Assembly: GCA_041648575.1 (NCBI GenBank)
Contig: JBAZOT010000003.1
Span: 14,895-78,894, forward strand
DNA from: Patescibacteria group bacterium
GTDB lineage: Bacteria; Patescibacteriota; Patescibacteriia; Veblenbacterales; UBA10138
Direction of reading: 5' to 3'
DNA length: 64,000 bases
The notes below the pieces were generated by a model. It had not been told where the DNA came from, ran no database searches, and worked only from the letters and a program-made list of their open reading frames with translations. Position numbers and translations under genes: made by a program. Shown here in pieces: positions 23,885 to 24,427 of the stretch (positions within the stretch are counted from its first letter, which is position 1; each line of letters begins with the position of its first letter).

Positions 23885-24022
23885 AAGTTTAGTTATTAGT
23901 TAATAGTTGATAGTTATTAGTAATAAATTTAAGCTATTGACAGATTAATAAGTTTATATTAAGGTTAGATAAAATTCAAGATAAATAATTAATTAAAATT
24001 GTAAATTTCTAAGGAGTAAAAA

Positions 24023-24220
24023 ATGATTATCTATATCTACGACATATTAACCCCTGATGACCTAACCATCACTGAACTTAGAGAATTAATGAATCATTAT
24101 GGCCAAAAAGGAATTAAAGTCAAAGTGCTACACATAGAAAAAATTCGGGGGGGAATTGTACAAAATTGCGGTAATATTATTTTACAAACAACACAAGAAG
24201 TGGCTACCATCCAAAAATAA
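24023..24220 (+). CDS. orphan 65-aa protein encoded antisense inside the atp operon
   Basis: AAGGAG lies 8 nt before the ATG, an upstream TTGACA is at 23937-42, and an intrinsic terminator follows directly. No recognisable family. Confidence 0.4.
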   Translation: MIIYIYDILTPDDLTITELRELMNHYGQKGIKVKVLHIEKIRGGIVQNCGNIILQTTQEVATIQK

Positions 24221-24256
24221 AATACTCCTGTCAAATATCAATTTATTCGTTTCTTC

Positions 24257-24295
24257 AACTCCAGCGATGAATACATCAACGGAGTTTTTTATTTT
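24257..24295 (+). terminator. intrinsic terminator of the 65-aa ORF
   Basis: AACTCC (24257-62) pairs with GGAGTT (24281-86), followed by TTTTTATTTT. Confidence 0.55.
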
Positions 24296-24320
24296 CTTAA
24301 AATTACAGTTTTTATTTTTT

Positions 24321-24388
24321 CTGGATTCCCCCACTACGCGGGGCAAGCCGCTGGAGTTTATCCCCGCGTAGGCGGGGACGGGAATGAC
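24321..24388. repeat. GC-rich palindromic element ending in GGGAATGAC
   Basis: CTACGCGGGG (24334-43) pairs with CCCCGCGTAG (24362-71). It lies in the atpG-atpD gap. Confidence 0.5.
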
Positions 24389-24427
24389 GTTTTTAAATCT
24401 TACTCTATACTCTTACTCTTACTTAAT

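Follow-up and report, generated by a model that had tools for sequence, protein, structure and literature searches.

Why should atpG and atpD, which encode the gamma and beta subunits of the F1 ATP synthase, stand 543 bp apart in a Patescibacteria genome, and what is the DNA that separates them? The question is raised by positions 23885–24427 of a 64 kb stretch of DNA (hereafter the window) from a 37 % GC contig of a metagenome-assembled genome of the Patescibacteria (candidate phyla radiation, CPR), in which the minus strand carries nearly all genes. A preliminary description, made from the sequence, had seen in this gap an inserted, self-contained antisense mini-gene followed by a GC-rich palindrome. 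Its coordinates for the 543 bp spacing agree with ours, and Pfam confirms both neighbouring genes. The explanation that is favoured herein, with moderate confidence, is that the gap arose by a recent insertion, lineage-specific and linked to hairpin repeats, that its palindrome is a long-loop copy of the NTS/SRM repeat family, that its open reading frame (ORF) is most likely unconstrained, and that the insert is tolerated by the operon.

Evidence for insertion comes from 80 loci obtained by scanning GTDB genomes with AtpG. The closest relatives without an insert (L001, L002, L003 and L005; 70–81 % AtpG identity) have an atpG–atpD spacing of 40–50 bp, that of L112 (81 % AtpG identity) is 79 bp, and most of the approximately 65 further loci fall between 20 and 90 bp. 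Because relatives at 70–81 % identity have spacers of only 40–80 bp, the 543 bp gap represents a lineage-specific insertion, as had been proposed. The same insertion was found in one sister genome, L110 (GCA_043806155.1), where the AtpG search identified a 3.6 kb contig with a 96 % identical AtpG and a homologous gap of 641 bp. The atpG–atpD junction is, moreover, a recurrent insertion site for foreign DNA in this Patescibacteria clade: L111 (86 % AtpG identity) harbours an unrelated sense-strand ORF of 220 aa that belongs to no Pfam family (3535–4197), L004 (72 % AtpG identity) has 342 bp of nested GC palindromes of a different kind (4940–5278), L014 contains a sense-strand gene of the 23S-IVS-type four-helix-bundle family (~4966–5325), and both L035 and L054 encode a membrane protein of 161–162 aa within the gap. 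No convincing terminal inverted repeats or target-site duplication could be found for the 543 bp insert as a whole, and neither palindrome, ORF nor spacer turned up in viral contigs or phage records.

Within and around the gap the following features can be recognized, where the atp sense corresponds to the minus strand.

24428–25369, minus strand: atpG, F1 gamma subunit (Pfam PF00231, E=4.9e-91), the upstream border of the insertion in the atp sense.
24398–24423, minus strand: purine-rich (GTAAGA)n tract, from a tandem repeat finder, which separates the hairpin repeat from the stop codon of atpG.
24390–24394, plus strand: run of five T residues directly after the palindrome, conserved in L110.
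24321–24389, minus strand: hairpin repeat of NTS/SRM type, long-loop variant, reading CGTCATTCCCG-TCCCCGCCTACGCGGGGATAAACTCCAGCGG-CTTGCCCCGCGTAGTGG-GGGAATCCAG.
24257–24286, with a T-run to 24295, plus strand: intrinsic-terminator-like hairpin AACTCC-AGC-GATG-AATA-CATC-AAC-GGAGTT (6 bp and 4 bp stems), then TTTTTTATTTT.
24023–24220, plus strand: ORF65, an ORFan of 65 codons, annotated as WC575_01190 of Patescibacteria group bacterium.
24011–24016, plus strand: Shine–Dalgarno (SD)-like AAGGAG, then TAAAAA (6 nt) and ATG.
23916–24010, either strand: very AT-rich block (~15 % GC), from composition and a promoter scan.
23885–23915, minus strand: ancestral atpD leader (AACTATCAACTATTAACTAATAACTAAACTT-ATG in the atp sense), aligning with the atpD-proximal sequence of L110.
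23885–24427: the gap as a whole, a lineage-specific insertion of 543 bp.
22493–23884, minus strand: atpD, F1 beta subunit (Pfam PF00006, PF02874 and PF22919), the downstream border of the insertion.

The features named in the preliminary description are all present, with small corrections. The AAGGAG lies 6 nt, and not 8 nt, before the ATG at 24023; the hexamer TTGACA does occur at 23937–23942 on the plus strand, within the AT-rich block, but has no −10 hexamer 16–18 nt downstream and was not called by the promoter scan, which made no plus-strand call; and the terminator hairpin is missed by a simple terminator scan because of its 3 × 3 interior loop.

With regard to the palindrome, its outer ends in the atp sense read CGTCATTCCCG...GGGGAATCCAG (24389 to 24321), its arms (24327–24343 and 24362–24378) are 88 % complementary, and the predicted RNA fold of each strand reaches −32 to −34 kcal/mol. 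It stands alone in the window as a non-coding GC island, and no further copy of it or of GGGAATGAC was found in the 64 kb. A literature search for GTCATTCCCGC led to a study of Ssn nucleases (PMC11893778), in which the Neisseria Transformation Sequence (NTS) has the consensus CGTCATTCCCGCGMAVGCGGGAATCYRG, encompasses dRS3 (ATTCCC-N8-GGGAAT) and forms part of a broader class of Ssn-related motifs (SRM). According to that study, SsnA is a 94 aa single-domain GIY-YIG nuclease that cuts NTS/SRM as single-stranded DNA, the motifs are often arranged as NTS-ssnA-NTS, and cleavage neither depends on loop identity nor is prevented by loop extensions (PMC11893778). The window palindrome shares with these repeats the oriented CGTCAT 5′ flank, the ATTCCCG...CGGGAAT stem and a 3′ CYRG, here CCAG; rather than an anonymous element, it is thus a long-loop member of the NTS/SRM hairpin-repeat family. 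It differs in the loop, which measures 0–5 nt in the published motifs and 45 nt in the window, and in the host, the Patescibacteria being a group unmentioned in PMC11893778.

The sister genome provides the short counterpart. At the palindrome site L110 carries an ordinary NTS-like hairpin of 28 nt, TGTCATTCCCGCGCAGGTGGGAATCCAG, with two mismatches to the NTS consensus, and the window palindrome equals this hairpin site plus 41 nt in the loop; on alignment, the short and long forms are allelic at one site. A second NTS-like hairpin, in inverted orientation, is found in L110 near one end of an extra MITE-like element (miniature inverted-repeat transposable element) of 142 bp (~3178–3319), which is bounded by terminal inverted repeats GGAYTTACGGGTTTRG, lies between the AT-rich block and the atpD leader, just upstream of the latter, and is absent from the window. 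The ORF in L110 therefore stands between two inverted hairpins. Each of the L110 copies departs from the NTS consensus at two positions, and neither fits the SRM pattern. In the stretches compared there are two NTS-like copies within 3.6 kb of L110 and one within 64 kb of the window.

Further members of the family were recovered from metagenomes. A scan with the inner 20-mer CCGCCTACGCGGGGATAAAC returned 28 loci with one copy each, approximately 20 of which are distinct members of one family with the consensus TGTCATTCCCGYCCCCGCCTACGCGGGGATAAACTCCRGCGGGAATCCAG and a loop of 26 nt, on contigs ranging from 33 to 68 % GC. Across 20 long-variant members the outer stem ATTCCCGYC/RGCGGGAAT covaries, displaying compensatory changes in six of nine pairs with 93.9 % of cells paired, a level reached by none of 500 shuffles; the inner stem is invariant by design of the 20-mer search. 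Compensatory stem changes, the mark of selection on a hairpin, are consequently present in the long-variant family. Relative to its consensus the window copy has 17 extra nt, CTTGCCCCGCGTAGTGG, which form an inverted (partial) copy of the inner arm and thereby explain the long palindrome. As in Neisseria, the copies lie between genes and frequently flank a gene as an inverted pair. In 13 long-variant loci a further site on the retrieved sequence matches the published SRM pattern, and in approximately 10 of these it is within ~100 nt of the long variant.

One lineage, represented by two contigs (L088 and L107), places a putative enzyme between such repeats. The order there is an SRM on the plus strand, a 96 aa GIY-YIG gene (PF01541, 3e-16) and a long variant on the minus strand, the last being 62 nt from the gene. 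The window likewise contains a small, single-domain GIY-YIG gene (60293–60550, minus strand; 85 aa; PF01541, 2.4e-16), the product of which shares 33 % identity with the L088 protein, reaches 85.7 bits when compared with a profile of the homologues of that protein and has UPF0213 proteins as its best PDB relatives. Its assignment to the Ssn group (cd10448) is putative, and cleavage of the window palindrome by an Ssn-type nuclease is a prediction. The GIY-YIG gene is located immediately 3′ of the tmRNA gene (60699–61081), the 3′ ends of tmRNA genes being classic targets of integration; the 150 nt between the two genes contain two hairpins and three repeats resembling ACTTCATGGCG. A purine-rich GAGTAAGAG...ATAGAG tract similar to the (GTAAGA)n tract beside atpG is positioned just upstream of the tmRNA gene (61120–61160, minus strand), and GAGTAAGAG occurs three times in the window (0.23 expected). 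The segment with the tract beside atpG, 24389–24427, is 97 % identical in L110.

The second line of evidence concerns ORF65, which lies on the 101 kb contig k141_75984 of ENA ERZ27249422 and encodes a peptide beginning MIIYIYDILTPDD... Searches of 5.8 billion and 1.84 billion proteins returned nothing other than ORF65 itself and one spurious match, P0002, a repetitive protein of 530 aa that was the sole other match in the representative protein search. There is no significant match in Pfam, PHROG or NCBIfam, the AlphaFold2 model has a low-confidence pLDDT of 50, and Foldseek found nothing at E ≤ 0.001. The only relative is the L110 allele, an intact ORF of 65 aa with 40 of 65 residues identical; it was not gene-called, and the protein searches therefore came up empty. 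Between the two alleles 40 of 195 nt differ, distributed over the three codon positions as 13/15/12, as against 11/4/100 for atpG and 14/2/89 for atpA in the same pair of genomes. The ratio of non-synonymous to synonymous change (dN/dS) is 0.96 for ORF65 and 0.02–0.05 for the atp genes, and values ≤0.3 for ORF65 are rejected (p=0.0015). No purifying selection is therefore apparent, with dN/dS near 1 and no excess of third-position changes, and with two alleles only the mini-gene of the preliminary description does not hold up as a demonstrable protein gene. From these comparisons ORF65 is probably not a constrained protein gene, and that it encodes a functional protein appears rather unlikely.

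How the two genomes differ around ORF65 requires some caution. The flanks are 92–97 % identical and the ORF body 78–81 %, which at first might suggest constraint on the flanks. Third-position identity, however, is 0.9–1.0 across the greater part of atpA and again at the 3′ end of atpG, and 0.43–0.7 for ~1 kb from the 3′ part of atpA to mid-atpG (window ~24700–25750). Such a mosaic indicates that part of the atp operon has recombined with a lineage further removed. As the pair is such a mosaic, with low background divergence, flank conservation was withdrawn as a sign of constraint. The same applies to the region 23922–24010, which is 93 % identical to L110: since this equals the background divergence of neighbouring segments, constraint is not demonstrated by identity. 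The ORF body itself is a hyperdivergent patch in which synonymous and non-synonymous sites are raised equally; selection for amino-acid change would fit this pattern less well than would a locally higher mutation rate or the acquisition, by recombination, of a divergent allele free of constraint. Adenine-specific diversity-generating mutagenesis was considered and discarded, as the substitution spectrum is mixed.

Taken in this way, the 543 bp insert would have arrived with hairpin repeats at a junction that repeatedly accepts foreign DNA. In the window, the long-loop form has its ATTCCCG/CGGGAAT stem, with the CGTCAT 5′ flank, enclosing a nested CCCCGC hairpin together with an inverted partial copy of that hairpin, and the remainder of the insert comprises the promoter-like AT-rich block, the 65-codon ORF and the plus-strand terminator hairpin. 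ORF65 would then be open by accident, be of very recent origin, or form the body of a plus-strand transcript that is not translated.

Tolerance of the insert could be achieved by two routes. By the first, RNA polymerase would read from atpG into atpD, meeting no hairpin with a U-tract on the sense strand. In the atp sense, AAUCCAGAAAAAAUAAAAA comes after the NTS hairpin (−32 kcal/mol); the second hairpin (−14 kcal/mol), which is the terminator hairpin seen from the minus strand, has an A-run before it and GAAGAAAC after it. As neither gap hairpin has an atp-sense U-tract, read-through from atpG to atpD is plausible, and on these grounds the possibility raised in the preliminary description is upheld. 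By the second route, atpD would be re-started from the AT-rich block, where the promoter scan identified a promoter-like TTTACA-16-TATCTT on the minus strand (24005–23978); the block may hold a promoter of atpD, of the plus-strand unit or of each of them. Of the atpD leader that follows, a shorter stretch, ACTATTAACTAA(C/T)AACTAAACTT, is common also to L111. Directly upstream of the atpD start, at 23889–23921, there are TTAGTTA tandem repeats and two copies of TAGTTATTAGT 21 nt apart, a pair that could be a protein-binding site.

On the plus strand the situation differs. The terminator hairpin folds at −10.1 kcal/mol (z=−3.5) and is followed there by UUUUUUAUUUU, so that a stable stem–loop with a U-tract is present on this strand only. 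In L110 it carries three substitutions, all within the interior loop, leaving stems and T-run unchanged, and it is the one structural signal of conservation discernible in the gap when compared with L110. The claim of a unidirectional terminator is thereby borne out as far as prediction goes. The five T residues after the palindrome could provide a second, back-stop plus-strand terminator, and the two terminator-like signals (24257–24295, and the NTS hairpin with T5 at 24390–24394) would keep antisense transcription out of atpG. The stable hairpin that follows atpG in the atp mRNA would behave in the manner of REP elements, as a 3′ barrier or processing site.

The last comparison deserves qualification. 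Like the REP/BIME/REPIN elements of proteobacteria, which are associated with RAYT transposases, the window repeat is a short, GC-rich extragenic palindrome between operon genes, forming stable mRNA hairpins without U-tracts and occurring singly or as inverted doublets in its family. It nevertheless belongs to another sequence family, the enzyme here being of GIY-YIG type as opposed to an IS200/IS605-like Y1 transposase, and REP-like stabilization of mRNA by the window hairpin is inferred only. The Correia elements of Neisseria and other MITEs, which bring promoters or terminators, provide a second parallel, being small, non-autonomous inserts with inverted-repeat features between co-transcribed genes; the additional 142 bp element of L110, with its terminal inverted repeats, lies at the same junction. 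The 543 bp insert differs from these in having no definable terminal inverted repeats or target-site duplication and, in the window, one hairpin repeat.

Several observations weigh against the repeat-associated insertion as set out above. The published SRM pattern, with its loop of 0–5 nt, has no match in the window, owing to the 45 nt loop of the palindrome, and there is no NTS match at ≤4 mismatches. The minimum-energy fold replaces the classical ATTCCC/GGGAAT stem by inner-arm pairing, a further difference from the Neisseria repeats, and the palindrome may have decayed to the point where the nuclease would not cut it. It is present once in 64 kb, and the GIY-YIG gene of the window is 36 kb away and not flanked by NTS/SRM repeats. 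As the second L110 hairpin belongs to the separate 142 bp element, the NTS-ORF-NTS arrangement may reflect two independent insertions and not one cassette, and the mosaic nature of the genome pair means that flank conservation is no proof of function. Finally, ORF65 is open at identical length in both genomes, for which the chance probability after 40 random substitutions is 0.11 by simulation, and its SD is strong where such sites are scarce in the genome, which would be compatible with a fast-evolving real peptide.

The last two points belong to the model of the preliminary description, the best surviving of the alternatives, which nonetheless remains unlikely. In the form considered here it holds that ORF65 is a real, translated gene with promoter, SD and terminator, the dN/dS near 1 then reflecting a young or diversifying small protein, and that head-on transcription, or the protein, modulates atpD/atpC or the ATP synthase. 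The translation signals are indeed good: AAGGAG lies 6 nt before the first possible ATG after an in-frame TAA two codons upstream, and the frame is also open in L110, at exactly 65 codons despite 40 substitutions, and followed by conserved terminator stems. Strong SDs occur in 3 of 58 window genes, and mainly on the few plus-strand genes, including Pfam-supported TonB_C and CDP-OH_P_transf genes. In L110, however, the SD is weakened to AAGGGT, and an open frame is, as noted, not beyond chance. The length of ORF65 by itself is not significant. Its codon-usage score of 0.30 falls at the 15th percentile of the range of real genes, but spurious ORFs average 0.03 (sd 0.25) and 4–5 of 24 reach the same value, meaning that the test does not separate ORF65 from these. 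Equal change at all codon positions, the empty protein and structure searches described above, and the lack of a properly spaced −10 hexamer after TTGACA likewise count against a translated gene. Of the preliminary interpretation overall, then, the inserted unit, the plus-only terminator and the possible read-through are retained; the mini-gene and the promoter-like TTGACA are not.

SD use in the window is split by strand as a whole. AAGGAG-like sites are seen on the few plus-strand genes (e.g. 30778, 48975, 62363 and 24023) and in just ~4 of 55 minus-strand genes, many of which instead have TATAAT 4–9 nt before the start codon, which suggests leaderless mRNAs.

It is possible, too, to regard the plus-strand unit as a non-coding antisense RNA that would start at a promoter within the AT-rich block and finish at the conserved terminator, in which case the act of convergent transcription, or the RNA ends, would matter. 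This would explain the freely drifting body, as the ORF evolves like non-coding sequence, as well as flanks (23922–24010 and 24221–24295) that are 92–94 % identical against 78–81 % for the body, and a terminator whose stems and T-run are kept, substitutions being confined to its interior loop. The identity of the flanks, however, is the background of adjacent gene ends, where third positions are 0.87–0.97 identical. Rfam searches at gathering and E-value thresholds (E ≤ 10) found nothing in the gap, the only match in the window being the tmRNA elsewhere, and no plus-strand promoter was called for this putative transcript. A functional antisense RNA is considered distinctly improbable.

Two further possibilities concern the inner hairpin, CCCCGC-CTAC-GCGGGG-ATAAAC. 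Like the type I-E clustered regularly interspaced short palindromic repeat (CRISPR) documented in the literature, GTTCCCCGCGCCAGCGGGGATAAACCG, it has a CCCCGC/GCGGGG stem of 6 bp, a 4 nt loop and a 3′ ATAAAC, and the motif CCCCGC-N4-GCGGGG-ATAAAC matches the window once with no mismatches (0.01 expected). On this basis the long-loop variant might be a functional chimera, in which an Ssn-type repeat captured an I-E-like hairpin and spread with an identical 20-mer through approximately 20 metagenome lineages of 33–68 % GC, the nested module being recognized by a second protein, as a Cas6e/Cascade decoy for example, or serving as a second nuclease site. Were this so, two nucleic-acid-targeting systems would be linked, and the window and L110 would show the short-to-long conversion at a single site; there is, however, very little probability that it is. 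Scarcely any remains for the reading of the inner hairpin as a solitary type I-E repeat, either an array relic or a Cas6e/Cascade decoy, and not an Ssn-type part. It is solitary in all 28 loci, with one copy per locus, and in every case lies within an NTS stem flanked by CGTCAT and CCAG, not in a series with spacers. Nor was a CRISPR-like array found in the window, a cas gene among the proteins scanned or an Rfam match in the gap. The CCCCCGC-type SRM hairpins that stand alongside in many loci offer a simpler origin, and the likeness was noticed after the fact.

That ORF65 might be a decayed relic, either of an ssn-type GIY-YIG nuclease or of an inverted C-terminal-domain fragment of atpH (delta/OSCP), is essentially refuted at the sequence level and the least credible of all: whilst neutral evolution would suit a relic, inverted NTS-like hairpins stand on both sides of the L110 ORF, an arrangement recalling that of the GIY-YIG gene of L088, and the best PDB matches are mitochondrial OSCP C-terminal domains (E=0.5–1.4), the GIY-YIG comparison gives hhalign P=0.33 with no hmmsearch match and no Pfam GIY-YIG even at E ≤ 10, and the delta comparison gives 2.3 bits with a hidden Markov model built from 71 relatives (rank 12 of 874 window segments) and hhalign P=0.11 for one sequence or 0.44 for both alleles, the GG motif behind the match being lost in L110.

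The operon into which the insert has been placed otherwise has the order atpI-like/B/E/F/H/A/G/D/C, all on the minus strand. Its remaining members are as follows.

29086–29367, minus strand: atpI-like (Pfam).
28224–29153, minus strand: atpB (Pfam).
27917–28129, minus strand: atpE, assigned only by ORF size and position.
27330–27845, minus strand: atpF (Pfam).
26932–27327, minus strand: atpH (Pfam).
25405–26907, minus strand: atpA (Pfam).
22023–22472, minus strand: atpC (Pfam).

AtpH, the delta subunit, comprises just 131 aa and matches the Pfam OSCP family from profile position 54 on. The short form is also present in close relatives (131–139 aa), so that in this clade the delta subunit lacks some of the N-terminal domain by which the alpha subunit is normally bound.

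Elsewhere in the window, a perfect palindrome of 28 nt, ATTTACCCTTTCGCGCGAAAGGGTAAAT, occurs at 32717–32755, and is matched less perfectly at 33073–33111, where 39 nt are 79 % identical. The two copies bracket a 92 aa ArsR-type helix-turn-helix gene (32778–33056), and the pair could be operators or part of a hairpin–gene–hairpin unit. The regions 6330–6488 and 51630–51781 share, over ~150 nt, one block of 45 nt (96 % identical) and one of 34 nt (91 % identical), and stand upstream of unrelated ORFs (5787–6344 and 49740–51644, respectively).

For the biology of the ATP synthase, the insert is probably a repeat-associated passenger that is tolerated. For the repeat family its significance is broader: NTS/SRM repeats, first described in Neisseria and recently tied to the Ssn nucleases of single-stranded DNA, are also present in a small Patescibacteria genome, and the family includes a long-loop form that is undetectable by the published search pattern, with short and long hairpins able to swap at one chromosomal site in sister genomes. 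A plausible mini-gene, furnished with an SD, an ATG, a frame open in two genomes and a terminator, can still evolve as non-coding DNA, and ORF65 therefore serves as a caution for the annotation of ORFans in the genomes of candidate phyla.

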